From Candidatus Zhuqueibacterota bacterium (GTDB lineage Bacteria; Zhuqueibacterota; Zhuqueibacteria; Residuimicrobiales; Krinioviventaceae): a stretch of 64,000 nucleotides of DNA. Location: assembly GCA_034505495.1 (NCBI GenBank), contig JAPDQV010000003.1:44240-108239 (forward strand), given 5' to 3'. Of the stretch, positions 16,891 to 62,905 are shown one piece after another. Made by a program: the position numbers and the translations under genes. Within the stretch, counting starts at the first letter, position 1; the number at the start of each line of letters is the position of its first letter. The notes under the pieces are model-generated. The model ran no database searches. It was not told the origin of the DNA and was given only the letters and a program-made list of their open reading frames with translations.

Positions 16891-16905
16891 TGCAAAGGTT
16901 TCTAC

Positions 16906-24284: not shown

Positions 24285-24365
24285 CGGTTATCCTTCAGTC
24301 TTTACTCGCGCCAAAGAGCTTGCATAATTTACAAAGAATGCTTATTTTTTCAATCAGAATATCGA

Positions 24366-24540: not shown

Positions 24541-24682
24541 GCTGATCGCTTATGCTGCACATGAGCTGATGCAGTCAAAAAGGCTTCCCTTCTTGCGGGC
24601 GGCCATTTTTTTTATCAGCCCGTAACCTGGTTTATTTCCACGTGCCAAACTGCCAATCGATTTAGGAAAGGAAGGGAACAAC

Positions 24683-34555: not shown

Positions 34556-34558
34556 TAC

Positions 34559-36330: not shown

Positions 36331-36469
36331 GTCCCCCCGCAATTCTAATCCCAACACGAATACCGCCAGCACTCTATCAATTTCTCCCATTTATTCAGTG
36401 CGATTAGTCGATTTTGTATCTTTCCATTTTTATTTAAATTAATTTTTCGAGCATACTCATTTGATTCCA

Positions 36470-36607
36470 TCATCGTTTTAATTTTTCTTTTAGTTCTAAA
36501 AGCTGTTCCTCCAACTTGGTCAGTCGCCGTAGGATCGCCAAGAGGAAAATGAACAGTCCCGTCCAGATGGCCGAGTAGGCAAGAAAAAGATAACCCAACT
36601 TTGTCAT
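36470..36607 (-). CDS. ccmD: CcmD-like small membrane protein (heme exporter protein D)
   Basis: Unlisted 45-aa ORF MTKLGYLFLAYSAIWTGLFIFLLAILRRLTKLEEQLLELKEKLKR. Its ATG overlaps the ccmC stop (ATGA). It has a single TM helix with the Tyr/Ala/Trp pattern typical of CcmD. Confidence 0.6.
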   Translation of the reverse strand: MTKLGYLFLAYSAIWTGLFIFLLAILRRLTKLEEQLLELKEKLKR

Positions 36608-41915: not shown

Positions 41916-42890
41916 ATGAAGCGAAGAGATTTTCTAAAATCCTTGTCGGCAGCCGGGCTGGTCGGTTTCTCGTCGTCCGTACCGGCGGAAGCGGTCGGAG
42001 AATCGCCGCAGATGAGAGGCCGCGTGGTGATGGTTCAGCGCCCCGGCATCGTCGATGCGCAGGAGCGGGCGGATGCGGTCAAGCTTGCGAACATGCTCGA
42101 TGCCGCGGTCGAAAGGCTGTTCGAAGAAAAAGCGGACAAGATTTGGCGAACGCTTTTTTCACCGCGCGATGTGGTCGGATTAAAGGTGAACTGTCTGGCG
42201 GGACGAGGCCTTTCGACCCGAACCGAACTCACCCAGGCGGTCGTCGATCGACTGACCAAAGCCGGAGTGCCGCATGAGCAGATCATCATTTGGGACCGCC
42301 GCGACCGCGATCTCCAACGCGCCGGCTATACGCTCAATTCGGGCAAGGGTGTTCAATGCTGCGGCAATGACCGCGCCGGATTTACCGAGCACGTGTACGA
42401 GTTTGGGGCCGCCGCCAGTCAATTATCGTTGACGCTTATGCGCTGCACGGCCGTCATCAATCTGCCGATTCTCAAGGATCACGGCATCGTGGGCATGAGC
42501 GGCGCCCTAAAGAATTTTTTCGGTGCGGTTAATAATCCGAACAAATATCATATGAACTGCGGCGATCCGTTTGTTGCGGACGTGGCTTGTCTGCCGCCGA
42601 TCCGCCAAAAGGTGCGTTTGACGATTTGCGACGCCTTGACGGCGCAGTACGAAGGCGGACCGCCGTTTATGCCGGAATATACTTGGCGCCTGGAGAGCCT
42701 TTTGGTTGCCGTCGATATGGCGGCGCTCGACCGCATCGCCTGGCAAATGATCGATGAGAAGCGCCGCCAAGTCGGACTGCCGACGCTCGAAAAGGCGGGC
42801 AGAAAGCCGACCTATATTCTGACGGCAGGCGATGCGGCGCACCGCCTGGGCGAGACCGACCCGATGAAAATTGAGTGGATTCGTATTTAA
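41916..42890 (+). CDS. Tat-signal DUF362 domain protein
   Basis: Twin-arginine motif MKRRDFLKSLSAAGLVGF...AEA, then a DUF362-like core. Confidence 0.65.
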   Translation: MKRRDFLKSLSAAGLVGFSSSVPAEAVGESPQMRGRVVMVQRPGIVDAQERADAVKLANMLDAAVERLFEEKADKIWRTLFSPRDVVGLKVNCLAGRGLSTRTELTQAVVDRLTKAGVPHEQIIIWDRRDRDLQRAGYTLNSGKGVQCCGNDRAGFTEHVYEFGAAASQLSLTLMRCTAVINLPILKDHGIVGMSGALKNFFGAVNNPNKYHMNCGDPFVADVACLPPIRQKVRLTICDALTAQYEGGPPFMPEYTWRLESLLVAVDMAALDRIAWQMIDEKRRQVGLPTLEKAGRKPTYILTAGDAAHRLGETDPMKIEWIRI

Positions 42891-42893: not shown

Positions 42894-43997
42894 ATGAAAA
42901 TTAGTCGCCGACAATTTCTTTTTACAGCCGCCGCTTCATTGGGCGCAGCAGGAATCGCCGCTGCGGCGGGCAAGAACGACGTCGACAAGCTGCACGAAGC
43001 GCGGTACTATAAAAAGCTGCCGCAGCGTAAAATAGAATGCGAACTCTGCCCGCGGCGATGCGTCATAGACGACATGGAGCGAGGCTACTGCGGTGTGCGC
43101 GAAAATCACGGCGGCGTCTATTACTCACTCGTCTACGGCCAAGTCTGCAGCGCCAATATCGACCCGATCGAAAAAAAGCCGCTGTTTCATTTTCTGCCTG
43201 GTGCCAAAGCCTTTTCGATTGCAACCGTCGGTTGTAACGTTATGTGCAAGTTCTGTCAGAATTGGGAAATCTCGCAGGCCAACGTCGATCAGGTCAAATC
43301 GATGGAACTTTTGCCCGCGCAGACGGCTGCGATTGCCAAGGACCGTCGCTGTGAAGTTATTGCCTACACCTATACCGAACCGGTCGTTTTCACGGAATAC
43401 ATGTATGATTGCGCCGTGGAAGGCCGAAAGGCCGGGGTGCGCAGCGTGATGATATCGAACGGCTACATAAATGCGCAGCCGATGAAGGATTTGTGCAACG
43501 TACTGGACGCCGTCAAGATTGATTTGAAGGCGTTTAACGAACGGTTTTATAGAGAGCTTGTGGCGGGCGAACTCAAGCCGGTGTTGGATACTCTCGTGCT
43601 GCTGAAAAAGCAAAAAATGTGGACCGAGATCGTTTACTTGGTGATCCCCGGACAAAATGATGATCCCGGAGAACTGCGCGAGATGTGCACCTGGATCAAG
43701 AACGACTTGGGGCCGGAGACGCCGGTACACTTTAGCCGGTTTCACCCCCAATATCGATTGACCAACATACCGGCTACGCCTTTGGAAGTATTGCGCAAAG
43801 CGCGGCGCATCGGTTTGGAGTGCGGTCTCTATTATGTCTACACCGGCAATGTGCCGGGGGATGAGGGCGAAAGCACCTATTGCCCGAACTGCGGTGCCGT
43901 AGTCATCAAGCGGTTCGGTTTTTCGGTACTGAGTCGCGCCCTCAAAGATGGAAGATGCGTTGCCTGCGGCAGGGCGATTGCAGGCGTGTGGAGCTGA
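42894..43997 (+). CDS. AmmeMemoRadiSam system radical SAM enzyme, with Tat-like N-terminus
   Basis: CNVMCKFC (CxxxCxxC) radical SAM motif. PFL-activase-like family. Adjacent to the Memo/AMMECR1 gene. N-terminus SRRQFLFTAAASLGAAGIAAAAG. Confidence 0.8.
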   Translation: MKISRRQFLFTAAASLGAAGIAAAAGKNDVDKLHEARYYKKLPQRKIECELCPRRCVIDDMERGYCGVRENHGGVYYSLVYGQVCSANIDPIEKKPLFHFLPGAKAFSIATVGCNVMCKFCQNWEISQANVDQVKSMELLPAQTAAIAKDRRCEVIAYTYTEPVVFTEYMYDCAVEGRKAGVRSVMISNGYINAQPMKDLCNVLDAVKIDLKAFNERFYRELVAGELKPVLDTLVLLKKQKMWTEIVYLVIPGQNDDPGELREMCTWIKNDLGPETPVHFSRFHPQYRLTNIPATPLEVLRKARRIGLECGLYYVYTGNVPGDEGESTYCPNCGAVVIKRFGFSVLSRALKDGRCVACGRAIAGVWS

Positions 43998-44015: not shown

Positions 44016-45518
44016 TTGTTTATGAAGAGAGGCTGCAACTTTTTTCTTTGTATTTTCGCCATGTGGAGCGGAGCCATGTTGAACGAAAGAGCAGAAGCAC
44101 AAGTACGGCCGCCGATGGTAGCGGGTCAATTCTATCCGGCCGACGCCCAACAGCTGTCGCGAGACGTTAAGCGCTACTTGGACAAGGCGGAAGACCTTCG
44201 TCTGCCGCCGATCATTGGTCTGCTTGTTCCGCATGCGGGGTACATTTATTCCGGCGCTACGGCTGCCGCCGGTTACAAGCAGGCGGCTCGACAGAAAGTC
44301 GAGTTGGCGGTGGTCATTTCTCCCACGCATCGCGAGTATTTCGAGGGAGTGACAATCTACCCAGGAGACGCCTACGAAACCCCGTTAGGAAAAATGGCCA
44401 TTGACAAACAAACGGCGGCCAAATTGGTTGCATCGCATTCAGCCGTGCATTTCAGTGAACGGGGACATCGGGCCGAGCACGCCTTGGAAGTGCAGTTGCC
44501 GTTTCTTCAGACTCTGTTTCCGCAGGCCAAGCTTTTGCCTTTGGTCGTCGGCCCTGATTGCGACTGGAAGACCTGCGAATCCGTCGGAAGAGCCCTTGCC
44601 GACGTCGTGCGCGGCAGGCAGGCTTTGATCGTCGCCAGTTCGGATCTCTATCATGGAGAGTCTTACTCGGATTGCGTCAAAATCAGCAAGGAGACGCTGG
44701 ATGCGGTGACGCGCCTGCAGCCTGAAGCTTTGTTCCGCGGGCTGCAGCGGGATACCTATCAGGCCTGCGGCGGCCTGCCCGCGGTGATTATGGAAACGGC
44801 GGCCATGGCCTTGGGTGCCGATGAGGCAAAACTGATCGCCCAGACCAATTCGAATGATGTGACCGGAACCCGCGGCGGCTATGTCGTGGGGTACGGCGCG
44901 GTTGCGCTCTATAAAAAAGCTTCGCAAGAGAATCGATCGGATAAAGTCGAATACAAGCCGTTACCGTTGGCCGAACAGAAATATTTGCTCAAGTTGGCCC
45001 GTTGGGCGATCGCGGAAAGATTGAAAGTCAAATCCGTCGAAGCACCGGCGAAACTCGCGAGTCCAATACTGCAAGAAAAGCGCGGAGTATTTGTAACGCT
45101 CACTCAAAAAGGTCACCTGCGCGGCTGTATCGGCCGCCATGAGGCGGATGTTCCTCTGGAAGAGTTGGTGCCGCAGATGGCTCGCGCCGCCGCCTTTGAA
45201 GATCCGCGTTTTCCGCCGCTGCGTCCCGAGGAGCTGGCTATTACGGACATCAAGATTTCGGTCTATTTGACCAACGTCTACCGAATTCACGATCTGTCCG
45301 AGTTCAAAATGGGCGAGCATGGGATCATCTTGAAAAAAGGATTTCATGCCGCTACCTATTTGCCGGAAGTGCCGCTCGAAGCCGGGTGGAAGACGGTGGA
45401 GGAAGAGATGGCCAGCCTCTGTCTCAAAGCCGGCCTGCCGCCGGATGCCTGGAAGAGCGGAGCCGAATTCTGGGTTTACAAAACACAGGTGTTCGACGAG
45501 TCGATTCTAAAGAAATGA
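44016..45518 (+). CDS. Memo-like (AmmeMemoRadiSam protein B) fused to AMMECR1 (protein A), with N-terminal signal peptide
   Basis: N-terminal half is MEMO1 family (QFYPAD..., LLVPHAGYIYSG). C-terminal half is AMMECR1 (RGCIGRHEA...). Preceded by a hydrophobic signal-like segment. Confidence 0.8.
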   Translation: MFMKRGCNFFLCIFAMWSGAMLNERAEAQVRPPMVAGQFYPADAQQLSRDVKRYLDKAEDLRLPPIIGLLVPHAGYIYSGATAAAGYKQAARQKVELAVVISPTHREYFEGVTIYPGDAYETPLGKMAIDKQTAAKLVASHSAVHFSERGHRAEHALEVQLPFLQTLFPQAKLLPLVVGPDCDWKTCESVGRALADVVRGRQALIVASSDLYHGESYSDCVKISKETLDAVTRLQPEALFRGLQRDTYQACGGLPAVIMETAAMALGADEAKLIAQTNSNDVTGTRGGYVVGYGAVALYKKASQENRSDKVEYKPLPLAEQKYLLKLARWAIAERLKVKSVEAPAKLASPILQEKRGVFVTLTQKGHLRGCIGRHEADVPLEELVPQMARAAAFEDPRFPPLRPEELAITDIKISVYLTNVYRIHDLSEFKMGEHGIILKKGFHAATYLPEVPLEAGWKTVEEEMASLCLKAGLPPDAWKSGAEFWVYKTQVFDESILKK

Positions 45519-45526: not shown

Positions 45527-45562
45527 GCGGGCAAAGGCAAAAGCTTTTGCCCGTTTTTGTTT
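45527..45562 (+). terminator. rho-independent terminator
   Basis: cgggcaaa...tttgcccg stem containing an internal palindrome (gcaaaagcttttgc), followed by a T-run. Confidence 0.7.
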
Positions 45563-45584: not shown

Positions 45585-45600
45585 TGGTCTATCGGCTGCA
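45585..45600 (+). promoter_or_regulatory. possible sigma-54 (-24/-12) promoter element
   Basis: TGGtctatcggcTGCa fits GG-N10-GC spacing. Lies upstream of the PP2C operon. Confidence 0.25.
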
Positions 45601-45662
45601 AAAACGGACAAATCCTTCTCTGTTCTTATCCCCAGACAATTCCCTTGATTAAATAGGCCTCG

Positions 45663-47852
45663 TTGTGTACTTTAACGAAACAGGTCATGTTTTTTTCCGT
45701 ATTCTGGGCCGGTCATTACACAGATCGGAGCAGCTTTGAGATACAGCAGCGGATTTTCCGCATGAAATATTTCAGTCAACTTTCGTTACTTCTTCCTTTT
45801 GCGTTTTTTTGCGCCGCTGCGGCCTTGTATTTGGCAGGCGACAGAACCGTCGCTTTGACTTGGGTCGGCTTACGGCACGAGGTCTTTGTCATCACCGCAG
45901 TGATCCTCTCCCTGCCGTTGATTTACAGACAAAAATGGGCATCCGATCGGAACGTTTTGCGCGGCATTCGCCATCTCTTTTTTCTGATAGTCATGACCGG
46001 CGGCATTTTGTTCCTTTCGCGCCAAAGATTCAGCCTGCTGCAGCAAAAGATCATCAGCCAGGATTGGTTTCGGCTCAATTGGAGCGATTCCGTCTTTGTC
46101 GTTTTATGGGCATTTTTTTCATTGATTTTTATTTTAATAGCCCTCGGCACCCTCCGCAACCTGATTTACGTTAAAAGGCGGCGAAACACCGCCCGCCATT
46201 TTGCCTGGCTGATGGTTTTGATGTTGCTTTATGCCTTTCTCGGATTGTATAAAAGCAGAACGCAAACCGAATTCGTCGAGAACGAGTTTCTCAAATACTT
46301 TGACAATATCGTTCTTTTTCTGCTCATCAACTTTATCGTCATCAATTCCTTTCGGGTCGGCTGGATCAATTATCTGAATAAAAAGCAAAAACTGGCCTGC
46401 TTTTTCGGCGGTTTTTTACTCATTCCTTTGCAGATCTCCTTCGTCAACCAATTTAAAGAGGTCAGCCCGGTTTACAACTTTAGCCCGTTTCTTGAGCGGT
46501 TTGTGGAAATGGGGATGATCTTTATTGCGGTTTATCTGAGTTTTGCCTTTCTGGCGCTTCTTGCGCACCTGCCGACCGCCAGGCTGTACGACCGAAAGCT
46601 GCAGCAGATCCGTTCTCTGCATGACCTAAGTCGAGTATTGAGCTCAGAGTTTGATTGGGACCGATTGGTGCAGACGATCGTTCGGCTGGCCGCTCAAGTG
46701 ACCGAGGCACAGTATAGCTGGCTCGAGCTGTACGTTAACGGCCGTTTGGCTCTGGCCTCGTCTTGGAATTTGAGTCTGAATGAAGAACGCCGCCGGCAGG
46801 CAGATGAGCAGGATCGTCTGTACGAAGCGCTGCGCAGTGAGCGGGAGTCCCTATTGCTCAACGAAGCCGGCAAAGATCCGCTCCTTCGCACGTTGCGCCG
46901 CTGGAAAAGCGGTCTCGGCTCTCTGGTGGCCGCGCCGTTGATCACCTCGGATCAGGTTTTGGGTTACCTCTTTGCCGCAAAACAGGAGGAATTTTCCTTC
47001 GAGCAGGACGATGCGGAGATGATGCGCGCCTTTGCAGACCAAGCGGCGGCGGCGATCATGAACGCCAAACTGGTCGAACAGTCGCTGGTAAAGGAAAGGC
47101 TCGAACAAGAGCTGCGCATTGCTCATGAGGCGCAGATGAAGCTGCTGCCTAAAACTATGCCTGTTCTAAACGGCATGGCATTTGATGCAGTCTGCATTAC
47201 AGCCAACGAAGTGGGCGGCGATTACTATGATTTTTTCGACATCGGCGAGGAATTAACGGCGGTAGTGGTCGGCGATGTTTCCGGCAAGGGCCCTTCAGCA
47301 GCTTTTTACATGGCCGAGGTGAAGGGGATTATGGAGGCGCTGGCGGCTGAACGGCTTTCTCCCGAAGAGATGCTGGCCATCGTTAATGAAACGGTTTATC
47401 GCAACTTTGACCGCAACACCTTTATCAGCCTGATCTACGGGTTGGTGGATGCCCGACGCCGCCGCTTTACCTTTTGCCGCGCCGGACATTGCCCGGTCTA
47501 CCATTATCGCGCTGCGGAGGCGGCGGTTCGTCGCTTGGAACCGCGCGGCATAGGTCTCGGCCTTACCTCCAGCCCTCTGTTTCAGAACACCCTGGAAACG
47601 ATGATCGTGGATATTCTGCCGCAGGATTGTTTTCTCCTCTTCACCGACGGCGTCATCGAAGCGAGAAATCCTGCCGGTGAAGAGTTCGGCGAAGAGCGGC
47701 TGGCTGAAGCCTTTCAAGAGGCTAATGAAACCCATGCAAACGAAATCAAGAAGCATCTTCTTCATCGCATTTATGCATTCTTTGACGGCGCCGCGGCGTT
47801 TGATGATCTGACATTCGTGCTCTTCAAGGCGGTTGCCGAGACCGAAAGCTAA
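45663..47852 (+). CDS. membrane sensor (~8 TM) GAF / PP2C (SpoIIE-type) serine phosphatase
   Basis: Long hydrophobic N-terminus, GAF region and C-terminal PP2C (GDVSGKGPSAAFYMAEVKG...). The true start may lie downstream (e.g. MKYFSQ). Confidence 0.75.
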   Translation: MCTLTKQVMFFSVFWAGHYTDRSSFEIQQRIFRMKYFSQLSLLLPFAFFCAAAALYLAGDRTVALTWVGLRHEVFVITAVILSLPLIYRQKWASDRNVLRGIRHLFFLIVMTGGILFLSRQRFSLLQQKIISQDWFRLNWSDSVFVVLWAFFSLIFILIALGTLRNLIYVKRRRNTARHFAWLMVLMLLYAFLGLYKSRTQTEFVENEFLKYFDNIVLFLLINFIVINSFRVGWINYLNKKQKLACFFGGFLLIPLQISFVNQFKEVSPVYNFSPFLERFVEMGMIFIAVYLSFAFLALLAHLPTARLYDRKLQQIRSLHDLSRVLSSEFDWDRLVQTIVRLAAQVTEAQYSWLELYVNGRLALASSWNLSLNEERRRQADEQDRLYEALRSERESLLLNEAGKDPLLRTLRRWKSGLGSLVAAPLITSDQVLGYLFAAKQEEFSFEQDDAEMMRAFADQAAAAIMNAKLVEQSLVKERLEQELRIAHEAQMKLLPKTMPVLNGMAFDAVCITANEVGGDYYDFFDIGEELTAVVVGDVSGKGPSAAFYMAEVKGIMEALAAERLSPEEMLAIVNETVYRNFDRNTFISLIYGLVDARRRRFTFCRAGHCPVYHYRAAEAAVRRLEPRGIGLGLTSSPLFQNTLETMIVDILPQDCFLLFTDGVIEARNPAGEEFGEERLAEAFQEANETHANEIKKHLLHRIYAFFDGAAAFDDLTFVLFKAVAETES

Positions 47853-47878
47853 ATGCTGCAGTCATTCGGAGGAAAACA

Positions 47879-48262
47879 ATGGAGACCTTTACAATTCAAC
47901 GACAAGACAAAGACGAATTATCTATTCTCAATCTTTCCGGTTTTTTGGACGCGCATACGGCTCCGGAACTGGAAAAGCAGCTCGATCAGCTCATCAATGA
48001 AGGCCGCAGCAAGATCATCGTAAATTTCGCGAATCTCAATTACATCAGCAGCGCCGGCCTCGGCGTATTCATGGGCAAAATCGAAACGGTCCGCAGTATG
48101 AACGGCGACATCAAGATGTGCAGAATGACGCCAAAAATTTTCCGAGTCTTTGATCTACTCGGATTCCCGACATTATACGACATTGTCCAGGAAGAGGAAG
48201 AGGCGGTGCAGCTTTTCGCGTCGAAAGAGCGCAGTTCGCGGAGAGCCGATGATAGAGCTTGA
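47879..48262 (+). CDS. STAS domain anti-sigma factor antagonist (SpoIIAA/RsbV-like)
   Basis: 127 aa STAS fold with a phosphorylatable Ser in the NYISSAGLG context. Confidence 0.85.
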   Translation: METFTIQRQDKDELSILNLSGFLDAHTAPELEKQLDQLINEGRSKIIVNFANLNYISSAGLGVFMGKIETVRSMNGDIKMCRMTPKIFRVFDLLGFPTLYDIVQEEEEAVQLFASKERSSRRADDRA

Positions 48263-48306
48263 GATCGCAGGCTTTTGCGGCCAATACCTACTGAGGAACG
48301 GATGTT

Positions 48307-48783
48307 ATGCCGAAAAATGAAATGACTTATTGCTTGCGGATACCCAGCCGCACGGACAACCTCGAGCTGATCCGCGAATTTGTCGCTCGTGTGGCCCGAA
48401 AGGTCGGCTTTGACGAGGACGATGTGGGCAAGATCGAGCTGGCCTGCGACGAGGCTTGTTCGAACGTCATTAAACACGCTTACGAGCAAAAGAACGGCAG
48501 TCAAAGCCTGGATGTTGTCATTCGCGTCGATTTGAAAAAACTGACCCTCATCGTCACCGACCATGGCAAAGGATTCGATCCTTCCAAGGTCATTGTTCCG
48601 GACATGAAGGAATATCTGGCGCAGCTCAAAGTCGGCGGACTGGGCATCTATTTAATGCGCACGCTGATGGATGAAGTCGATTACGACATCAAACCCGGCG
48701 TACGCAATCAGGTCAAGATGGTCAAGTATCTTATCGATAAAAAGAGCTCCAAGGTGGTAAAGGCCGACAGGAATGAGGAATGA
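48307..48783 (+). CDS. anti-sigma regulatory factor / Ser-Thr kinase (RsbW/SpoIIAB-like HATPase)
   Basis: GHKL ATPase N-box ELACDEACSNVIKHAY and G-boxes. Confidence 0.85.
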   Translation: MPKNEMTYCLRIPSRTDNLELIREFVARVARKVGFDEDDVGKIELACDEACSNVIKHAYEQKNGSQSLDVVIRVDLKKLTLIVTDHGKGFDPSKVIVPDMKEYLAQLKVGGLGIYLMRTLMDEVDYDIKPGVRNQVKMVKYLIDKKSSKVVKADRNEE

Positions 48784-50534
48784 TGCGCGCTCGATCGTCG
48801 GCTCGAAAACTCGATCTGCGCAGCGTGGAGCTGCGGTCGTTGATCGAACTCAGTCAGGTGCTCAACGCTTCGCTGGACGCCGATGCAGTGCTCAATACTT
48901 GCCTTCTCACGCCGATGGGACGAATGCTCATCAGCCGCGGCATGGCTTTGACTGCGGACGAAAACGGAAGTCTCGGCGTGCGCATCCTCAAAGGACTGCC
49001 CGCCTCTCTTGCCCAACAACGCTTTACATTTGAGTATGCATTTCGCACGCCGACCCGACTTGCTGAATTGCCGGACGATGTCTGCCGCTACAAGCCGTTT
49101 TTGCAAAGTCTCGGCATTGAGTTGGTGGTGCCGATGTGCTCGCCGAGCCGAATGGTCGGCGCCTTGTGCTTCGGCGGCAAAATGACCGGCAAACCGTTTT
49201 CCCCTCGCGAACTCGAATTTCTCAATTCGTTTTCCAACATTGCCGCCACGGCGCTGGAAAATGCCTTAATGTTCCAAAGCCTAATAACCGTCAACCGGCG
49301 CCTGGACCGCAAGGTGCATGAACTTAACACTTTGTTCGAGGTCGGTAAGGAACTGAACACGGCATTGGATCGGGAGAGGATTCTTGCCATTCTGCAGCAC
49401 ACGGTTATGGGACAAATGACGGTCAATAAATTGATCATGATCGAGGTAGGAGAAGATCAAACGATCGAATACCCCATCCTCAAGTGGCCGGAGCGAACCG
49501 AGTTGGACCGTATTCTGGCCGAGAAAGAGTTGATTTTGAGCTTGTCGGAATTGAACGAAGCGCGTCTTTTGACGGCTGAGGAACCGGCACATCGACTTTT
49601 GTTCGAGGCCGGCGTTCGTGCGGTCGTACCGATGCGGCTGCAGGAAGAAACACGGGCACTATTGCTGCTCGGCAAAAGGCTTTCGCGGCAAGAGTACGCG
49701 CAGGAGGATCTGGATTTCTTGTCTACACTCGGCAATCGCGTCATGGTATCGTTGGAAAACGTCAGGCTCTTCCAAGAGGCGCTGGAAAAGCAGCGGCTGG
49801 AAGAGGAGATGGCGATTGCCGAATCGATTCAGCAGCGGCTGCTGCCGCGCACTTTTCCCTCGCTGCACGGCATCGAGATTTACGGTCTCAATCAGCCCTC
49901 GCGAATGGTCGGCGGCGACTATTTCGACTGCATTCCGCTGAGCGACGGCCGCGTCGTTTTGGCCGTGGGAGACGTTTCCGGCAAAGGCCTCGGCGCGGCG
50001 CTGCTCATGTCGAACCTCCATGCCGGTTTGCATACGCTGCTGCAGTCCGGTTTGCCCATGAACGAGATGATCAAGCGGCTGAACGATCTGATCTATCGCC
50101 ACACCGATTTCGACAAGTTCATTACTTTTTTCTACGCCGAACTTGATCCGCAAAGCCGTCTGCTTCGCTATGTCAACGCCGGGCACAACCCGCCGATGCT
50201 TTGTCGCAGCGACGGCAGCATCGGACTGCTTACGGAAGGCGGCCTAATTCTCGGCATGCTGGAGGATGTCGATTATATGATCGGTCAAGTCGAACTGCGC
50301 AGCGGCGATCTGCTGGCGGCCTACACCGACGGGGTGACCGATGCGCGCAACAGCGCGGATGAACTCTTTGACGAGGATCGATTAGCGGAGCTGGTCAGGA
50401 CAGCGGCCCGCAGCGATCTGCGCGCCGACGAGTTGTGCACGCAAATCGTCAAGGCCGTCGAAGACTTTAGCGGCGATCTCCCCCAGGCAGACGACATCAC
50501 CCTGTTAATTGTAAAGGTCCAAGAAAAGACATGA
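48780..50534 (+). CDS. tandem GAF / PP2C (RsbU/SpoIIE-type) phosphatase
   Basis: Two GAF-like regions, then PP2C (GGDYFD..., GDVSGKGLGAALLM). Confidence 0.8.
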   Translation: MMRARSSARKLDLRSVELRSLIELSQVLNASLDADAVLNTCLLTPMGRMLISRGMALTADENGSLGVRILKGLPASLAQQRFTFEYAFRTPTRLAELPDDVCRYKPFLQSLGIELVVPMCSPSRMVGALCFGGKMTGKPFSPRELEFLNSFSNIAATALENALMFQSLITVNRRLDRKVHELNTLFEVGKELNTALDRERILAILQHTVMGQMTVNKLIMIEVGEDQTIEYPILKWPERTELDRILAEKELILSLSELNEARLLTAEEPAHRLLFEAGVRAVVPMRLQEETRALLLLGKRLSRQEYAQEDLDFLSTLGNRVMVSLENVRLFQEALEKQRLEEEMAIAESIQQRLLPRTFPSLHGIEIYGLNQPSRMVGGDYFDCIPLSDGRVVLAVGDVSGKGLGAALLMSNLHAGLHTLLQSGLPMNEMIKRLNDLIYRHTDFDKFITFFYAELDPQSRLLRYVNAGHNPPMLCRSDGSIGLLTEGGLILGMLEDVDYMIGQVELRSGDLLAAYTDGVTDARNSADELFDEDRLAELVRTAARSDLRADELCTQIVKAVEDFSGDLPQADDITLLIVKVQEKT

Positions 50535-51703
50535 ATGGAGTTAAGGCAAAACATTCGGCAGCGCGCATCCTTTTGGTGGATGACGATGCAAACAACCGAC
50601 GATATTATTTCAATGTGCTGAAACGGCAGGGCTATGAGCTCGACGAAGCCGCCTCCGGTGAAGAGGCGATCGAAAAGATTCGCGGCAACGATTACGACGT
50701 GGTGGTCAGCGACCTGCAAATGTATCAGTTGAGCGGCTTGGACGTGTTGGAAGCCGCCAAGGCAAGGGATCCGTTCACGCAGGTCCTGATCATGACCGGT
50801 TACGGCAGCATTCCCACGGCCGTTCTGGCGATGCAGCAGGGCGCGTTCGATTATCTTTCCAAGCCGGTACAAAAGGACGCTTTGGTTCTGCGCGTTCAGC
50901 GGGCGTTGCGCGAACGGGCGCTGCGTCTGCAGTTGAAAGAACAGCAGGAGCGCATCGAGGCGCACAACCGCATGATCGAGCGCGACCTCGAGCTGGCGCA
51001 AAAGGTGCAGGCCAGCCTGGTGCCGTCGGATTTCGAGAATGAGCGATACGCCGTAGCCATTCACTATGAACCAATGATCGGAATCGGCGGCGATTTTTGC
51101 AACGTCATGCCGTTCGACGAGGATCGATTTATCGTCAACATGGTCGATGTAACCGGACATGGTATTGCAGCTGCGCTGCTTGTCAACCGAGTATGGAATG
51201 AGTTAGAGTCCGTGCTGCATCGGCAGCCGTCGCCGGCAGAGGTGCTGAGGCAGATCAATGACTTTTTTTATGCGACGTTTTCGAAAATGGGGCTTTTTAT
51301 GACCATCTTTGCTTTGGTCGTCGATCTGCGTAAAATGGAGGTGACCTATGCCGGCGGCGCCCACCCTGCAGCGCTCGTTGCCAATGCGAACCGTCCAACT
51401 CTTCGCGAGTTGCCTTCGGACAATTTGATCATCGGATTTATGCCTTCGGATCGGGTCAAATTTTTCGAAGCCTCGGCGCCGCTGGAGCACGGCGACCGTA
51501 TTGCCGTTTATACCGACGGCATTCTGGAGGCGGAAAGCGAAAAAGGCTGTTGTTACAGCATGCAGCGGCTCAAGGAAACGTTTGCCGCTCATCGCGCTGA
51601 GCCGGCGGCCGTCGCCTGCCGCAGCATCGTCGAAGACGTCAAGGCATTCAGCGGCGGCGTTTTGCGCGACGATGTGATGCTGATGTTGATCGAAATCAAA
51701 TGA
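50531..51703 (+). CDS. response regulator receiver / PP2C phosphatase
   Basis: Canonical REC (LLVDDD..., VVSDLQM, LSKP) fused to a PP2C domain. Confidence 0.85.
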   Translation: MNGVKAKHSAARILLVDDDANNRRYYFNVLKRQGYELDEAASGEEAIEKIRGNDYDVVVSDLQMYQLSGLDVLEAAKARDPFTQVLIMTGYGSIPTAVLAMQQGAFDYLSKPVQKDALVLRVQRALRERALRLQLKEQQERIEAHNRMIERDLELAQKVQASLVPSDFENERYAVAIHYEPMIGIGGDFCNVMPFDEDRFIVNMVDVTGHGIAAALLVNRVWNELESVLHRQPSPAEVLRQINDFFYATFSKMGLFMTIFALVVDLRKMEVTYAGGAHPAALVANANRPTLRELPSDNLIIGFMPSDRVKFFEASAPLEHGDRIAVYTDGILEAESEKGCCYSMQRLKETFAAHRAEPAAVACRSIVEDVKAFSGGVLRDDVMLMLIEIK

Positions 51704-53139
51704 ACGTTATGAAACATACCAAGCAGAAAACAGCTCTGCTGTTCAATCCCTGGATCTACGACTTTGCCGCTTATGACTTTTGGATCAAGCCGATCGGTCT
51801 TTTGACCCTCGGCAGCCTGCTGAGGGCGAACGGCTGGACGGTGCAGCTGATCGACTGTTTGGATCGCTATCATCCCTTGACCGCCGGCAAAAGCAAGGAC
51901 AAAGGCGACGGCACCGGCAAGTTCATTCGACAGGAGATCGAAAAACCGGCGGTGCTGAAGGATGTGCCGCGCCGATTTTGCCGCTACGGTATGCCGCCGG
52001 ATCTCGTACGCAGCCTGCTTGAGAAAATCGAGCCGCCGGACCTTATTCTGGTTACCTCGGTGATGACTTATTGGTATCCGGCGGTCAGAGATGCCGTCCG
52101 GCTATTGCAAGAATATTTCCCGCAGGCTCATCTTATGCTCGGCGGCATTTACGCCACTCTATGTCCCGAGCATGCTGCAGCCGTGCAGCCCGACGAACTG
52201 GTGACCGGCGAGGGAGAGCTTGCCGTCATGCGCCGTGCCGCCCGGATTGCCGGAGAAGATGCTGATTTTTCATTTCACAGCTTAGACGACCTTCCCTTTC
52301 CGGCTCTCGATCTTTATCCGGTTTTGGTTTCCGCGCCGCTGCTCACTTCGCGCGGTTGTCCCAATCGCTGCAGCTTTTGCGCCTCGCCGATTCTTTGCCC
52401 CGCTTATCGCCGTCGATCGCCTGAAAACGTTCTCGCAGAGATCGAACTGCTGTACGCACGCGGCGTGAGTCAGTTTGCTTTTTTCGACGATGCGCTTCTT
52501 CACCAGGCGGAACGGTATATCAAACCGATTTTGCGTCAGGTCATCGAACGTCGTTGGCGCCTCCATTTCCACACGCCGAACGGTCTGACGCCGCGTTTTA
52601 TCGACGAAGAGTTGGCGCACCTCTTTCGGGCCGCCGGTGTGGAGACGATTCGACTGAGCTTCGAAACGGCTAATCCGGAGCGATGGCGGGCTATGTCCGG
52701 CAAAGTGAGCATCGAGGATCTGCGCCGAGCCTTGGCCAATCTCGAAGCCGCCGGCTACGATCGCCGTGAGATCGGTGTGTATCTGCTGATGGGTCTGCCG
52801 GATCAGTTGCCGGAAGAATTTCGCGAAAGCGCTCGGTTGGTGCACGATCTTGGGGCGCGCCTTTATCCGGCATCCTTTTCGCCCATTCCAGGAACCTCGG
52901 ATTGGCGAAAATCTGTTGCGTCCGGCTTATGGGACCCTCAGGCCGATCTGCTGCTTACCAATACAACCCTTTTCCCGCTTTGGCGGAAGCTTTACAGTTG
53001 GTCATTCTGCAACGAGCTGATGGAATGGACTCACGATCTCAACCGTCGCCTTGACAAAACGATCGACGATGAAAAACGCAGCCGACCGGCCGACGGCGAA
53101 GCAATGCTTTGTGATGTTCCGGAATCTTTTCTATTTTGA
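51700..53139 (+). CDS. B12-binding-domain radical SAM protein
   Basis: N-terminal B12-binding-like Rossmann domain, CPNRCSFC (CxxxCxxC) cluster motif and elongated rSAM core. 4-nt overlaps on both sides. Confidence 0.75.
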   Translation: MNVMKHTKQKTALLFNPWIYDFAAYDFWIKPIGLLTLGSLLRANGWTVQLIDCLDRYHPLTAGKSKDKGDGTGKFIRQEIEKPAVLKDVPRRFCRYGMPPDLVRSLLEKIEPPDLILVTSVMTYWYPAVRDAVRLLQEYFPQAHLMLGGIYATLCPEHAAAVQPDELVTGEGELAVMRRAARIAGEDADFSFHSLDDLPFPALDLYPVLVSAPLLTSRGCPNRCSFCASPILCPAYRRRSPENVLAEIELLYARGVSQFAFFDDALLHQAERYIKPILRQVIERRWRLHFHTPNGLTPRFIDEELAHLFRAAGVETIRLSFETANPERWRAMSGKVSIEDLRRALANLEAAGYDRREIGVYLLMGLPDQLPEEFRESARLVHDLGARLYPASFSPIPGTSDWRKSVASGLWDPQADLLLTNTTLFPLWRKLYSWSFCNELMEWTHDLNRRLDKTIDDEKRSRPADGEAMLCDVPESFLF

Positions 53140-53145
53140 CCGGCA

Positions 53146-55152
53146 ATGAGAGTCGGAGACGAAATTCGTTTGAACCGCATTTGGGTAAAATTGTCGGCCG
53201 TCATTACCCTGCTGGTTTTACTGCTGATGATTGTGGTCTTTCGCTTGATCACCCTGCGTCAGATCAAGACTGAGCGCGATCAGCTGCGCGATCATATGGA
53301 GCGGATTGCCATGCAGATCGCCTCGATTCGGCTGACTTCGGCGGACGATCTTCTCATTTATCAGGAATGGATCAAGGGTATCCTCGACTCGCCCGCCGGT
53401 AAGGATATCGTGTACATTGCCATTTATGACCGTAACCGCCGACTTTTCGCATACGCTCTCAATCCGCAGTATCTGGACGTTCCCTCTCCGCAGTTGCTGA
53501 CGCCGGAGGATGAGGTCGACATCATTCAGCGGCTCAGCCGCGGCGAGGTGGCGGAGGAAAGCTGGAACGACTTTGATCACGTGCCGGTGGAGATACGCAC
53601 CGGCCGGCTCGATCTCGGCCGCGTCGACGTCGGCTTTTCTCTGATCGATTTCAACAATCGAGCGCGCAGAAATCTGCTCATTAACGTCTATATTTTGGCC
53701 GGCGCCTTTGCGGCCGTAGCCGGTCTGTCGATCCTTATCGGTCGACGCATCACGCAGCCGCTTGAACGACTCTCCGCCGCCATGCTGGATGTTTCGCACG
53801 GCAACCTCGACGTGCGCGTATCGATCAAAAGCCGCGATGAGCTGGGCAAGCTGATCGACAGCTTTAATTATATGACGCTGCGGCTGCGGGAAAAACGGCA
53901 GATCGAAATGTTTTCCCAAGACCTCATGCTTTTTTTCGAACACGAAAAGCTGCTGCAGTTGGTGATCGAACGGATCGTGGGGTATCTGGGAGCCGACTAT
54001 GGTGCGTTGTTTCTGCTCGAAAACCGCGGTGAGACTACGGCAGCGGTCTCCCGCTGGAGTGCCCCGATTCCTCTGCAGGCGACAATCGAAGAAACGTTCG
54101 ATCAGGATTGCCTGTACCAAGTCGTCGGCCGACTGGAGCCGTTCTTTATCGATAAAAACCGCCATGCAGGAACCCTCCTGCGGCTTCAGGAGAGATTGAA
54201 AGAACGACTGGGCGCCGACCAATTCGTTTTAGCGTCGCCGATGGTCAGCCAGGGCGAGGTGCTCGGCTTTGTTCTGCTGTCGCACGAAACCGACGGCAGC
54301 CATTACGACGGCGACGAGCTGATGTTTTTACGTACGCTTTGCGGCCAAGCCGGTATGGCGGTCCGTAACAGCATGCTGCTCCGCGACTTGACCCTCCAAC
54401 AGCGACTGCAGAAAGAGCTCGAAATCGCCAGGCAGGTTCAAGCAGGCCTGCTGCCGGATCGGGAGCCGTGTTTGGACGGCCTGCAGTTGGCAGGCGCCTG
54501 TCTGCCCGCAGAAAAGGTGGGCGGCGATTACTATGACTATTTCGTTTTGGACGATCATCGCCTCGGCATAGCCGTGGCCGACGTTTCCGGCAAAGGCACT
54601 TCAGCAGCATTCTACATGGCCGAAATCAAGGGCATGATGTCGTCGATGACGCAGTTCATAACCTCACCCAAGGAATTGATGCGGCGTCTCAACCGGCTGT
54701 TATGCCGAACCGTCGATCGACGTATTTTTACCACCATGTTGTACGGCATAATCGATTTGGCGGCGGGCGAGTTTGTCTTTGTAAGAGCGGGGCACAATCC
54801 GTTGCTCGTGCGCCATGCGGATGGGACCGTCGATTTGCTCGTGCCGCGCGGCATGGCTTTGGGCTTGGCGGGCGATGAATTGTTTGACCGTTTTACGGAA
54901 GAGTATCGTCTGCCGCTCCGCGCCGGTGACATTCTTTTTATCTTTACCGATGGCCTTACGGACGCCAGGAACGCAACCAATGAGGAATTCGGCGAAGAGA
55001 GGCTGGCGGCTTGGCTGCGGGCGTGTGATGTTGCCGATCCGATGCATATCCGACAGCAAATCTTGCAAAAGATCGACGAATTCGCCGGCGGCGCCGTGCA
55101 GCATGACGACATCACCCTCGTGATTGCAGCCGTAGCTGCGAAAAAATCTTGA
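53146..55152 (+). CDS. membrane HAMP / GAF / PP2C phosphatase
   Basis: N-terminal TM, periplasmic-like segment, second TM and HAMP, GAF, then PP2C (GGDYYD..., DVSGKGTSAAFYMAEIKG). Confidence 0.8.
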   Translation: MRVGDEIRLNRIWVKLSAVITLLVLLLMIVVFRLITLRQIKTERDQLRDHMERIAMQIASIRLTSADDLLIYQEWIKGILDSPAGKDIVYIAIYDRNRRLFAYALNPQYLDVPSPQLLTPEDEVDIIQRLSRGEVAEESWNDFDHVPVEIRTGRLDLGRVDVGFSLIDFNNRARRNLLINVYILAGAFAAVAGLSILIGRRITQPLERLSAAMLDVSHGNLDVRVSIKSRDELGKLIDSFNYMTLRLREKRQIEMFSQDLMLFFEHEKLLQLVIERIVGYLGADYGALFLLENRGETTAAVSRWSAPIPLQATIEETFDQDCLYQVVGRLEPFFIDKNRHAGTLLRLQERLKERLGADQFVLASPMVSQGEVLGFVLLSHETDGSHYDGDELMFLRTLCGQAGMAVRNSMLLRDLTLQQRLQKELEIARQVQAGLLPDREPCLDGLQLAGACLPAEKVGGDYYDYFVLDDHRLGIAVADVSGKGTSAAFYMAEIKGMMSSMTQFITSPKELMRRLNRLLCRTVDRRIFTTMLYGIIDLAAGEFVFVRAGHNPLLVRHADGTVDLLVPRGMALGLAGDELFDRFTEEYRLPLRAGDILFIFTDGLTDARNATNEEFGEERLAAWLRACDVADPMHIRQQILQKIDEFAGGAVQHDDITLVIAAVAAKKS

Positions 55153-57713
55153 GATTCCCTATGTCGAACGGAACGAGACGAACGTTTGTCCTATTGGCGG
55201 CTCTTTTTTTGACCTGCGGCACCCAGGAAGAGCGCCGTATCCGGCTGAGCCGTCGGCCGTTGGACGTGCTGTCGCAGGAGCGCGTGCGCGCCGTCAGAAT
55301 TGCCGTGGAAGAGAAAAAGCGCCTTGCCATTCTGCCTTTAAAAAACGAAACGCCGGATGCCGCCCCGACTTGGCTTGGGCAGGGCTTGGCGGATATGCTT
55401 GCCCTCACTCTATCACAATCGAGGCAACTCAATCTTATCCCCAGCCGCACCGTCAACGACGTTTTGGCGCGCGCGAAACTCAAGCTCGAGGACTTGACCA
55501 CGGCGCCGCTGTGTCGTCGTGCCGCCGCCGAACTCCGCGCCGACGCCCTCATCAACGGCTGCTATCGATACGTCGGCGATTCCTTGATTGTCGAACTGAA
55601 TATATGGGACGGTCTGAGCGGCGAGCGTCTGGAAAAGTTAACCGCCGGCACCGGCAAGATCGACATCAAACCGCTCTTTCGCATGATTAATGCATCTGCC
55701 GGAAAAATCCGCAGCCTGATGGAAAGGCAGAAAAATGACGAACCGCCGATTCAGGAAAAGACGACGCCGTTGGTTACGACGCATTCTCTGGAAGCCTACC
55801 GTCTCTATACGGAAGGTGTGGCGCTGCTGGAAGGGTTTTCGATCGGCGAGGCGGCGTCCAAGTTCGCCCAAGCGGTGCAGCTCGATTCGACGTTTGCCTC
55901 GGCCTGCATGCGCCTGGCTCTCTGTCAGTTGATGGTCGGCCGGAAAAGCGAAGCAAAAGCCCTGCTGCGCCAAGCGCTGCGTCATTCGGCCCAGCTGCCC
56001 GAGCGCGAAAGGCTGCCGATTCTGGCCTTGAAAGCGCAAGTGGACGGCGACTATAATCAGGCTGTGCGTCTTTATGAGCAATACCTGGAATCTTTTCCCC
56101 AGGACGTTCAGGGTCATTACCAACTTGGCGAATACTATTTCAGCGTAGCCCGTGACTATCGCAGGGCAATCAGCTATTTAGAAACCGTCATCAGCCTCGA
56201 TCCCAATTACAAAAGCGCCTACAATCTGTTGACTTATTGTTATGCCATGATCGGCGAACTGGAGCGCGCTTTGGACGCTCTTGACCGCTATATTGAACTC
56301 GCCCCTAATGAGGCCAACCCCTATGACAGTTACGGTGAAATTCTTCACAGCGCCGGCCGGATCCAAGAGGCAACTGAAAAGTACCGAACAGCTTTGCGCA
56401 TCAATCCGGCGTTTGTCCCCGCTCAACTTCACCTTGCCGCGGCTTACTTGGACATGGGCAAAACGGGCAAAGCGCGCAGATTTCTGCAAAAGAAGGTGCT
56501 CAATCAGAAAGACGTTGCCGCCCGCCGAGGCGGATTCAAGCTTCAGGTACTGACCGAAATCGTCGCCGGCGACATTAACCGCGCGGAAAGGCTCCTGCGT
56601 TCCGTAGGATCGTCGAATCCGGAAGAACAGCTTTGGAGTACGTACGTTCTTTTGCTGCTTCGCCCGGATTCCCAAGAATACCGCCGCGACTTTGTCGAGC
56701 TGGTCGAAAAAGAGTCGGCGCGCATGGCCGATCCGGATTATGCGGCGGAAAGGTTGTTTCAGATCAGTTCTCTGGCTTTGGAACTCCAGATTGCCTTGCC
56801 GGAGGTGAGCCGTCTGCTCTATGAATATCTGCGCAGCCACTCCTCACCTTTGGCCATGCAGATTGTGCTTGCCTATGCGGGAGTGTTTCAACTTTACGGC
56901 ATTCCGTTCTCGGTTCAGGACGAACTTTTGCCGTCGATTCGATCCATGCCCGAAACGTTTCAAAGCTGGGGGCCTATACCGTGGGATTATTATTGGAAAT
57001 ACTTTTTTATCGGACTCGATCGCGCCTCTAAGCGCGGGATCGATGTACAGGCAGTAGCGGACGATCTGGCCGATTTTGCAGGGCGCAGCGGTAATCGGTC
57101 GATGCAGATGGAAAGCGTTCTGGCTCAGGCGGCCGCTGCGCATTTGCAAGGTCAAGCGGACAGAGCGAGGCAGATCCTTGCCCAAGCTGGGATGCCTGTG
57201 GAAAGCGATTGGCTCGTTCTCGGTCCCTTTGAGGTTCGGCGCGGCTTTTCGCAAACCTTTTGGCCCGAAAAGCACACGATGAACGAATGGTCGAAACTCG
57301 ATTTGCAGCCGATACCGCAGCCTGCCGCCGACAGCCGCTTTGACGGTTATATCGATTTACACGAAATATTTACGACCCGATTCAATCAGGCGGCGTATGC
57401 GATGCTGTACGTCTATTCGCCGACGTTGCGCAAGGCAGTGTTTGCCGTGGGGACTAATGCCCGACTTAAAGTCTGGTTGAACGATGAACCGCAGCGGATG
57501 ATCGTCCGCACCGCTCCTGCCGTGATCGATCAGGATTTTATTCCCATACGCTTAAAGCCGGGGTTGAACCACCTGCTGCTGCGCCTGGACGTTCCTTTCG
57601 GCGAGATCGGATTCTACGGTCGATTCCTCACCCCCTTCGGCGAGGCGATTACCGACTTGAAATTCGGCGAGCAGGCGACAGCCGCTGCCCGCGAAATGGA
57701 GCCTAGCGAATGA
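55149..57713 (+). CDS. large secreted TPR-repeat protein
   Basis: Signal peptide, then 854 aa dominated by TPR-like repeats. Confidence 0.6.
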   Translation: MRFPMSNGTRRTFVLLAALFLTCGTQEERRIRLSRRPLDVLSQERVRAVRIAVEEKKRLAILPLKNETPDAAPTWLGQGLADMLALTLSQSRQLNLIPSRTVNDVLARAKLKLEDLTTAPLCRRAAAELRADALINGCYRYVGDSLIVELNIWDGLSGERLEKLTAGTGKIDIKPLFRMINASAGKIRSLMERQKNDEPPIQEKTTPLVTTHSLEAYRLYTEGVALLEGFSIGEAASKFAQAVQLDSTFASACMRLALCQLMVGRKSEAKALLRQALRHSAQLPERERLPILALKAQVDGDYNQAVRLYEQYLESFPQDVQGHYQLGEYYFSVARDYRRAISYLETVISLDPNYKSAYNLLTYCYAMIGELERALDALDRYIELAPNEANPYDSYGEILHSAGRIQEATEKYRTALRINPAFVPAQLHLAAAYLDMGKTGKARRFLQKKVLNQKDVAARRGGFKLQVLTEIVAGDINRAERLLRSVGSSNPEEQLWSTYVLLLLRPDSQEYRRDFVELVEKESARMADPDYAAERLFQISSLALELQIALPEVSRLLYEYLRSHSSPLAMQIVLAYAGVFQLYGIPFSVQDELLPSIRSMPETFQSWGPIPWDYYWKYFFIGLDRASKRGIDVQAVADDLADFAGRSGNRSMQMESVLAQAAAAHLQGQADRARQILAQAGMPVESDWLVLGPFEVRRGFSQTFWPEKHTMNEWSKLDLQPIPQPAADSRFDGYIDLHEIFTTRFNQAAYAMLYVYSPTLRKAVFAVGTNARLKVWLNDEPQRMIVRTAPAVIDQDFIPIRLKPGLNHLLLRLDVPFGEIGFYGRFLTPFGEAITDLKFGEQATAAAREMEPSE

Positions 57714-58348
57714 ACGAACGGTACGAAAAAAAACCGCCTTTTTTTACGGCCGTGGCCGGCAATATCGGCGTCGGCAAGACGACGCTTACCCGCTTGGCTG
57801 CCGAACGACTCGGCCTCAGACCCTTTTTTGAGCGCGTCATCGATAATCCCTACCTGGACGATTTTTATCGCGATATGGCCCGTTGGAGCTTTAACCTGCA
57901 GATCTTTTTCCTCTCTAAGCGATTCATCGATCAGCGCAAAATTTCCGAGAGCAGAGAACCGTGCATCCAGGATCGATCCATTTATGAAGATGCCGAAATT
58001 TTTGCTTATATTCTGCACAAGCAGGGTTATATGAGCGATCGCGACTATCAAAACTATTGCGACCTGTTCGCTGTTATGACCGATTATCTGCGTAAACCGG
58101 ATTTGATCGTCTATCTGCGCGCCTCGACATGGACCCTGATTACTCGCATTCGCAAACGCGGTCGCGAGTTCGAAAAGCGCATTACCGTCGATTATCTGCA
58201 CGAACTGAACGAAGCGTATGAGCGTTGGATCAAAAAGGTGCAAAAGACGATGAACGTATTAACGGTCGATACCGACCGCTTCGATTTCGAAAACGATCCT
58301 GAGCAGTTAGATCAAGTGATCCGGCAGATCGCATCTTTCATCAACTGA
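57710..58348 (+). CDS. deoxynucleoside kinase
   Basis: P-loop GNIGVGKTT and dNK family layout. Confidence 0.8.
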   Translation: MNERYEKKPPFFTAVAGNIGVGKTTLTRLAAERLGLRPFFERVIDNPYLDDFYRDMARWSFNLQIFFLSKRFIDQRKISESREPCIQDRSIYEDAEIFAYILHKQGYMSDRDYQNYCDLFAVMTDYLRKPDLIVYLRASTWTLITRIRKRGREFEKRITVDYLHELNEAYERWIKKVQKTMNVLTVDTDRFDFENDPEQLDQVIRQIASFIN

Positions 58349-58358
58349 GAGGTGAGGT

Positions 58359-59156: not shown

Positions 59157-59180
59157 ACTGGAAAGCGGCCAAGAGCGCAT

Positions 59181-60038: not shown

Positions 60039-60039
60039 T

Positions 60040-62897: not shown

Positions 62898-62905
62898 AGG
62901 GGATA

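Follow-up and report, generated by a model that had tools for sequence, protein, structure and literature searches.

The DNA analysed here, referred to as the window, is a stretch of 64,000 nucleotides (nt) from a Candidatus Zhuqueibacterota (KSB1) bacterium (GenBank assembly GCA_034505495.1, contig JAPDQV010000003.1, positions 44,240 to 108,239 of the forward strand). Its subject is a group of seven consecutive genes, all on the + strand, whose products carry the domains of a partner-switching signalling system together with those of a B12-binding radical S-adenosylmethionine (SAM) enzyme, abbreviated rSAM below. The domains were assigned by Pfam and NCBIfam scans of the open reading frame (ORF) listing, and the Pfam matches bear out the seven-gene series named in an earlier reading of the bare sequence (the original prediction). 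The genes and the hairpin that precedes them are as follows, with positions given in the window.

45527-45554, + strand: terminator-like hairpin with a 12-bp stem and a T tail, the best-scoring such site in 39.6-59.5 kb
45663-47852, + strand: membrane-GAF-PP2C phosphatase (Pfam SpoIIE 5e-44, GAF 4e-13)
47879-48262, + strand: single-domain STAS protein, RsbV/SpoIIAA-like (Pfam STAS 1e-15)
48307-48783, + strand: RsbW-like GHKL serine kinase or anti-sigma-type protein (HATPase_c_2 2e-30)
48780-50534, + strand: cytoplasmic GAF-GAF-PP2C phosphatase (Pfam, two GAF domains and PP2C)
50531-51703, + strand: REC-PP2C phosphatase, response-regulator gated (Response_reg 5e-27, SpoIIE 6e-39)
51700-53139, + strand: rSAM, with B12-binding and Radical_SAM domains (Pfam)
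53146-55152, + strand: HAMP-GAF-PP2C phosphatase with two transmembrane helices and a periplasmic loop (Pfam, transmembrane scan)

Organization of the predicted transcription unit

The hairpin at 45527-45554 sits just 3' of a Memo-AMMECR1 gene and probably bounds the transcription unit on its 5' side. The first phosphatase gene cannot start at 45585, where the original prediction had placed it, because the reading frame is interrupted by a stop at 45654-45656. The earliest available start is the TTG at 45663, and the true start is likely the ATG at 45762, which is favoured because the resulting product of 696 aa fits orthologues of 690-700 aa. The genes had been described as largely overlap-coupled, and this holds for three of the six internal junctions (kinase/GAF-GAF-PP2C, GAF-GAF-PP2C/REC-PP2C and REC-PP2C/rSAM), at which the neighbours overlap by 4 nt; the other three are gaps of 6-44 nt. 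The rSAM gene itself was said to overlap its neighbours at both ends, and it does so at its start (ATGA, 4 nt), whereas its stop is separated from the HAMP-GAF-PP2C gene by a 6-nt gap.

The close packing continues downstream, with 4-nt overlaps at the HAMP-PP2C/TPR and TPR/dNK junctions and further gaps of no more than 24 nt in a co-directional run that reaches the end of PfkB at 63811:

55149-57713, + strand: TPR protein of 854 aa, overlapping the HAMP-GAF-PP2C gene by 4 nt
57710-63811, + strand: tightly spaced block of dNK, SAM_HAT, M50 peptidase, orf336, PBP1 (Transgly/Transpeptidase) and PfkB genes

Because this tight co-directional packing goes on into the TPR to PfkB genes, the unit does not stop at 55152, and rSAM is not its only non-signalling product as had been thought; the TPR, dNK, SAM_HAT, M50, PBP1 and PfkB genes share the same run. 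No further terminator-like site of comparable strength was found on the + strand from 45.6 to 58 kb. A sigma-70 promoter scan returned 15 sites against 11.4 +- 4.1 in shuffled sequences, which is not above chance, and gave no internal promoter for rSAM; scans of the window placed neither a tRNA nor an Rfam element in the operon. The 4-nt overlap and the lack of a comparable terminator-like site between 45.6 and 58 kb make it probable that rSAM is co-transcribed with the switch genes.

The switch proteins

The four phosphatases differ in their sensory parts and agree in their catalytic domains. The first has about eight hydrophobic segments in its N-terminal 270 aa (Kyte-Doolittle), and in the HAMP-GAF-PP2C protein two transmembrane helices bracket a loop of ~140 aa ahead of the HAMP domain. 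The receiver aspartate of REC-PP2C is kept and aligns with that of the Pseudomonas aeruginosa REC-PP2C protein 3eq2, its closest solved relative. In all four PP2C domains the DVSGxG, TDG and DD motifs are invariant, and the matches to PF07228 range from 6e-39 to 5e-56. The STAS protein scores 70.4 bits with TIGR00377, above the cut-off of 53.45, and an alignment pairs its Ser58 with the phospho-serine of SpoIIAA (1th8_B). In the kinase the N, G1 and G2 boxes can be recognised by eye from the sequence (E..N, DHGKG and GGLG), and its best solved relative is Bacillus subtilis RsbW (6m36, 1.5e-18); at 100.8 bits against an equivalog cut-off of 145 it is not an RsbW equivalog. By these domains and residues the operon encodes a complete set of STAS protein, RsbW-like kinase and PP2C phosphatases with four different kinds of gating, in line with the full RsbV/RsbW/RsbU-type toolkit lacking a sigma factor in cis that had been proposed.

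An orthologue of the GAF-GAF-PP2C phosphatase is found in every related operon, and the number of PP2C genes varies from two to five between relatives. In many of them the operon is headed by a fifth PP2C gene, whose product of ~800 aa has no recognised sensor domain and which has no counterpart in the window. It was located as follows, the numbered L designations denoting the loci that were compared:

Fifth PP2C gene: L001 1547-4015; L002 1594-4014; L011 1613-3997; L096 6352-8805; L100 4363-6795; L101 2702-5167

The radical SAM enzyme

The radical SAM motif of the enzyme is C220-x3-C224-x2-C227, with all three cysteines invariant in 24 homologues, and the domain matches PF04055 at 5e-22. The B12-binding domain (PF02310) scores 43.8 bits, above the cut-off of 32.1, in a match limited to profile positions 50-118, and this match is weak or faint in several of the homologues. 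An AlphaFold2 model (pLDDT 86.8) was compared with solved structures in the Protein Data Bank (PDB) using Foldseek. The nearest folds are the class B enzymes AprD4, MgmA, TsrM, OxsB, CysS and TokK, followed by MiaB and RimO; matches to the class B enzymes have E-values of 1e-18 to 1e-13, TM-scores of 0.55-0.67 and identities of 14-19%, and the model aligns over its full length with TsrM, AprD4 and MgmA. The window enzyme thus resembles AprD4, MgmA, TsrM, TokK and CysS in having an N-terminal Rossmann/B12-like domain and a CxxxCxxC barrel, and it differs from them in its low identity (14-19%) and in scoring below the cut-offs of all characterised NCBIfam subfamilies.

No NCBIfam family is reached (BchE 74 bits against a cut-off of 481, PhpK 67 bits against 600), and neither the NCBIfam equivalogs nor the sequence relatives in the PDB assign the enzyme a function. 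The Rfam scan found no cobalamin riboswitch in the window. AprD4, the top structural match, has a B12-type domain and is nonetheless not known to be a cobalamin enzyme. We regard rSAM as a member of a widespread and well-conserved B12-domain radical SAM family that may use cobalamin. Alignment shows that the switch-linked members are collinear with the unlinked ones and carry no added domain.

Distribution of rSAM and the switch

The order membrane-GAF-PP2C/STAS/kinase/GAF-GAF-PP2C/REC-PP2C/rSAM is also present in L001-L004, L010-L012, L016-L018, L098, L100 and the P0024 contig, where the rSAM proteins are 47-68% identical to that of the window. Longest contigs of the same size recur 36 times between the best 120 rSAM matches and the best 120 GAF-GAF-PP2C matches, and 16 of these 36 are no longer than 20 kb. 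Since the REC-PP2C/rSAM order recurs across the KSB1-type relatives, a recent fortuitous insertion of rSAM is ruled out and the adjacency is, as judged from gene order, a long-standing and frequent feature of the KSB1 clade. A KSB1 metagenome-assembled genome, which contributes L008, has 93% nucleotide identity to the window and full synteny; an apparent deletion of 170 aa in its rSAM gene corresponds to a 100-N scaffold gap and is not real.

The association does not extend to the rSAM family at large. The original prediction had proposed searching related genomes for co-occurrence of the enzyme with STAS, RsbW and PP2C genes, and rSAM-bearing loci were drawn from genome and metagenome collections and 95 of them searched with PP2C, STAS and kinase profiles. 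Counts are restricted to the 56 loci whose upstream flank spans 4 kb or more. A PP2C gene lies near rSAM in 10 of these, all KSB1-type, and none is near it in the remaining 46; co-occurrence with the switch is confined to KSB1-type clades. The rSAM proteins of the 46 switch-less loci are clear orthologues (40-50% identity, with many invariant residues), and their genes have assorted housekeeping genes as neighbours, namely an M16 peptidase pair, PhoH, 7TM-HD, M20, MtnA-like, Dtd, QueC and AsnC/NirDL-like genes. The last of these form a recurrent arrangement in a different clade of rSAM orthologues (cluster 7): in L043 (8948-9424) and nine other loci a 158-aa AsnC_trans_reg2/NirDL-like helix-turn-helix protein is encoded directly upstream of the rSAM orthologue on the same strand, with a median gap of ~50 nt.

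Two loci were considered as further associations and rejected. In L042 a PP2C fragment lies at a contig edge with a SAICAR synthetase gene between it and rSAM, and so does not count as a second, independent association; in L005 a weak STAS match 2.6 kb upstream of rSAM is accompanied by no kinase or PP2C gene and is separated from rSAM by NfeD and SPFH genes.

The switch likewise occurs without the enzyme, its orthologous core lacking rSAM in four loci. In L097, from the Calditrichia, the operon ends in GAF-PP2C and REC-GGDEF genes; in L101 small unrelated ORFs follow REC-PP2C; in L099 the M50-PfkB genes follow it directly; and in L096, which shares a contig with L013, the switch core lies ~14 kb and 14 genes away from a group comprising rSAM, RidA, HAMP-PP2C and TPR genes. 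A looser arrangement is seen in L021, where asparaginase, PCMT and DedA-like genes and two unassigned ORFs stand between REC-PP2C and rSAM. The absence of rSAM from this operon in close relatives had been named in advance as a result that would refute the proposed wiring and point to fortuitous insertion; absence is indeed found at deeper divergence (L099, L101, L097 and L096), while inside KSB1 the adjacency prevails.

Neighbours downstream of rSAM

The dNK to PfkB block is likewise found downstream of rSAM in relatives. In L001-L004 and L016 the genes dNK(-SAM_HAT)-M50 follow rSAM directly, with no HAMP-PP2C or TPR gene, and in L100 the order is REC-PP2C/rSAM/RidA/SAM_HAT/M50/PfkB. In L099, a relative of L100, rSAM, RidA and SAM_HAT are jointly missing while M50-PfkB is kept, and the switch-less loci L027 and L076 have rSAM-RidA-(x)-SAM_HAT(-M50). 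A RidA gene (Ribonuc_L-PSP) lies downstream of rSAM in six independent loci, directly so in five, distributed over three clades of a neighbor-joining tree, a crude basis for statements about clades. Loci with the pair include:

rSAM and RidA: L100 11197-15013; L027 10001-14456; L076 2289-5068; L013 10001-11994; L025 2079-3993

The rSAM-RidA(-SAM_HAT-M50) group may constitute an uncharacterised SAM-dependent module.

The HAMP-PP2C gene is always accompanied by a following TPR gene. The pair is kept in L010-L013, L017 and L098 and missing from the operons of L001-L004, L016 and L100, and Pfam and NCBIfam scans found no effector domain in the TPR protein. The HAMP-GAF-PP2C gene and the gene for the ~850-aa TPR protein (53146-57713 in the window, 11998-16614 in L013) behave as a mobile two-gene unit.

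Sigma factors and candidate outputs

No sigma-70 domain was found with Pfam in the 42 window ORFs that were scanned, which cover the segment 645-12509, apparently a fab cluster, only in part. In L010, L011, L096, L097 and L098 the 10 kb on either side of the orthologous operon also hold no sigma gene. In L099 a sigma factor of 285 aa is encoded 6.6 kb downstream of the operon; it was rejected as a cognate partner, having RpoD/RpoS-like, primary-type domains and scoring 105 bits with the SigB/F/G model against a cut-off of 234. In L097 the operon closes at its 3' end, after the phosphatase genes, with a REC-GGDEF gene (14018-15673) in the place that REC-PP2C and rSAM take in KSB1 operons; this hints at a cyclic di-GMP output in the Calditrichia lineage.

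A proposed multi-input switch with a probable passenger enzyme

The analysis shows the domains, the catalytic and phosphorylation-site residues, and the order and distribution of the genes; from these we infer, with a probability of about 0.7, a multi-input KSB1 partner switch with its target gene located elsewhere, together with a co-transcribed rSAM that is a passenger. The four sensors, consisting of a polytopic membrane domain with GAF, a tandem GAF pair, a phospho-receiver, and a periplasmic loop with HAMP and GAF, would all act through their PP2C domains on the single phosphorylated STAS protein. Once dephosphorylated, the STAS protein would capture the RsbW-like kinase and thereby set free the kinase's other partner, which would be encoded outside the operon and may or may not be a sigma factor. 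The rSAM gene would be translationally coupled to REC-PP2C and co-transcribed with it, yet its product would be no component of the switch and would belong by origin to the downstream block. Its older linkage would be to the RidA/SAM_HAT/M50 block, upstream of which the switch operon came to sit in the KSB1 lineage; in the lineage of the window, insertion of HAMP-PP2C and TPR (with or without dNK) between rSAM and SAM_HAT would then have given rSAM its embedded appearance.

Several observations weigh against this interpretation. In most KSB1-type loci, with rSAM identities as low as 47%, REC-PP2C and rSAM overlap by 4 nt or are less than 10 nt apart, and selection may thus have acted to some degree on their co-expression. 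In L013 rSAM lies two genes from HAMP-GAF-PP2C though the STAS and kinase genes are 14 kb off. Finally, no target of the kinase was found, so a non-sigma target encoded in cis may exist.

In the best-placed alternative, the switch would have as its output a non-sigma protein encoded in or beside the unit, candidates being the TPR protein and second-messenger enzymes like those of SiaABCD or HsbR/HsbA-type systems. Known sigma-less systems do have non-sigma outputs (PMC8256260), the five relatives mentioned above have no sigma gene nearby, the Calditrichia operon finishes with REC-GGDEF, and the HAMP-PP2C and TPR genes are conserved, and mobile, as a pair. We nevertheless consider such an output possible rather than probable, given that many orthologous operons (L001-L004, L016 and L100) have no TPR gene, that the TPR protein has no detected effector domain, and that the GGDEF gene is present in one lineage only.

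Somewhat less credible is the proposal that some of the phosphatases, REC-PP2C for example, act on other substrates or serve as adaptors, so that two or more pathways would share the cluster. It draws on the nearest relatives of REC-PP2C, which are P. aeruginosa 3eq2 and the RssB model NF045505, on the variable set of two to five PP2C genes per relative, and on the finding that docking interactions determine the specificity of PPM phosphatases (PMC11418112). The unit has a single STAS gene and a single kinase gene, and catalytic motifs are kept in all four PP2C domains, both of which speak for one pathway. In Bacillus, RsbU and RsbP provide a precedent for two phosphatases converging on one STAS protein. 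On balance, separate pathways appear unlikely.

The original prediction had offered a more direct connection, namely that the kinase/STAS pair gates rSAM or that rSAM makes or modifies a signal; in its KSB1 form, rSAM would be sequestered or phosphorylated by the kinase or the STAS protein, or would make or modify a ligand of the GAF phosphatases. Its place right after REC-PP2C, mostly translationally coupled and kept across deep KSB1 divergence, is compatible with such wiring, as is the lack of a sigma factor in cis, and a partner-switching-like module acting on an enzyme has been described (PMC13555669). The distribution points the other way: the modules are separable, with the switch lacking rSAM in L097, L099, L101 and L096 and 46 of 56 rSAM loci lacking the switch, and rSAM instead co-migrates with RidA/SAM_HAT/M50. 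Moreover, the plainly unrelated dNK, PBP1 and PfkB genes are just as syntenic, and the linked rSAM proteins have no clade-specific added domain. Wiring of rSAM into the switch is accordingly improbable in our estimation. The related claim that within KSB1 the switch, and especially the coupled REC-PP2C, controls rSAM or the whole rSAM-RidA-SAM_HAT block, by protein contact or obligatory co-expression, is similarly a long shot; if true, this would be the first radical SAM enzyme found under the control of a partner switch. In a weaker variant, rSAM-RidA-SAM_HAT may itself be a conserved SAM-dependent pathway, so far undescribed, of anaerobic phyla that have not been cultured.

Comparison with characterised partner switches

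The operon of the window resembles the B. subtilis RsbU/RsbP-RsbV-RsbW-sigmaB system, and SpoIIE-SpoIIAA-SpoIIAB-sigmaF, in its phospho-serine STAS protein, RsbW-like GHKL kinase and SpoIIE/PP2C phosphatases, and the sigmaB system has more than one sensor phosphatase per STAS protein, as is expected for the window too. It differs from the sigmaB system in having no sigma gene in the operon or the scanned ORFs and no RsbR/S/T stressosome genes, and KSB1 differs further in encoding four to five phosphatases in the same operon, whose sensors are of the membrane, GAF, REC and HAMP types.

Sigma-less partner switches have been reviewed, including Bordetella BtrUVW (type III secretion), Vibrio fischeri SypE/SypA and Chlamydia Rsb (PMC8256260), and the RbaV/W/Y switch of Rhodobacter capsulatus has been reported (PMC3999984). 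These combine PP2C, STAS and RsbW-like kinase proteins with no adjacent dedicated sigma factor, as the window does, and their outputs are not known or non-canonical (PMC8256260, PMC3999984). They have one or rarely two phosphatases, whereas the window has four, each gated differently, in one unit. P. aeruginosa SiaABCD, the RssB-like 3eq2 protein and Bacillus cereus RsbY offer parallels for the HAMP-PP2C (SiaA-like, with a partial match to NF038263) and REC-PP2C inputs; the window has no equivalents of SiaC or SiaD, and scores far under the family cut-offs limit the comparison to architectural likeness. In the Anabaena HenR/All4160 system a partner-switching-like module acts directly on a glycosyltransferase (PMC13555669); there a STAS domain forms part of the enzyme itself by fusion, whereas in the window the STAS protein is free-standing and rSAM has no STAS domain.

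A full-text literature search found no relevant paper that joins partner switching with radical SAM enzymes. The statement that no such wiring has been described nevertheless makes the case look newer than it is, since sigma-less switches, and one module of partner-switching type that controls an enzyme directly, are already in the literature (PMC8256260, PMC3999984, PMC13555669).

Other features of the window

Upstream of the hairpin lies a second co-directional group:

39812-41851, + strand: PAS-GAF protein (REC-PAS-GAF in relatives)
41916-42890, + strand: DUF362 protein
42894-43997, + strand: AmmeMemoRadiSam radical SAM protein (TIGR04337, 387 bits)
44016-45518, + strand: Memo-AMMECR1 fusion protein

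The hairpin divides this group from the switch operon, and homologues of part or all of the group keep the upstream position in L001, L002, L010, L011, L098 and the P0024 contig.

The other scanned genes of the window are housekeeping genes (Dus, FabG, RNase III, MutL, MiaA, the diaminopimelate/lysine pathway, a ccm ABC transporter) and genes for cargo of the type IX secretion system. A lysine riboswitch (RF00168, 121 bits, 24363-24544) precedes genes for aspartokinase, DapB, DapA, DapF, an aminotransferase and a decarboxylase, an ordinary arrangement; it is the sole Rfam match in the window and lies 21 kb upstream of the operon. The stretch 34000-36600 has a GC content of 0.41, compared with ~0.54 elsewhere, and contains no tRNA or Rfam match; no ORF of at least 150 aa is present at 35503-36604. 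Secreted proteins with Por_Secre_tail/CHU_C domains, which serve type IX sorting, are encoded at 14946-18096 and 31183-33369 and comprise an M14 carboxypeptidase, an FlgD_ig protein and a DUF5060 protein. These sorting domains fit the assignment of KSB1/Zhuqueibacterota to the FCB superphylum (PMC11683472).

Implications

The embedded look of rSAM is best explained by long-lived synteny, and recognizing this saves effort on an unlikely wiring. The rSAM family itself, with its RidA and SAM hydrolase-type partner genes, could merit enzymological study. For the uncultured KSB1 (Zhuqueibacterota) and Calditrichia lineages, the comparison points to a conserved sigma-less switch with unusually many PP2C inputs, three to five for each STAS/kinase pair, and it adds evidence for partner switching as a general signalling device beyond the sigma factors of Bacillus.

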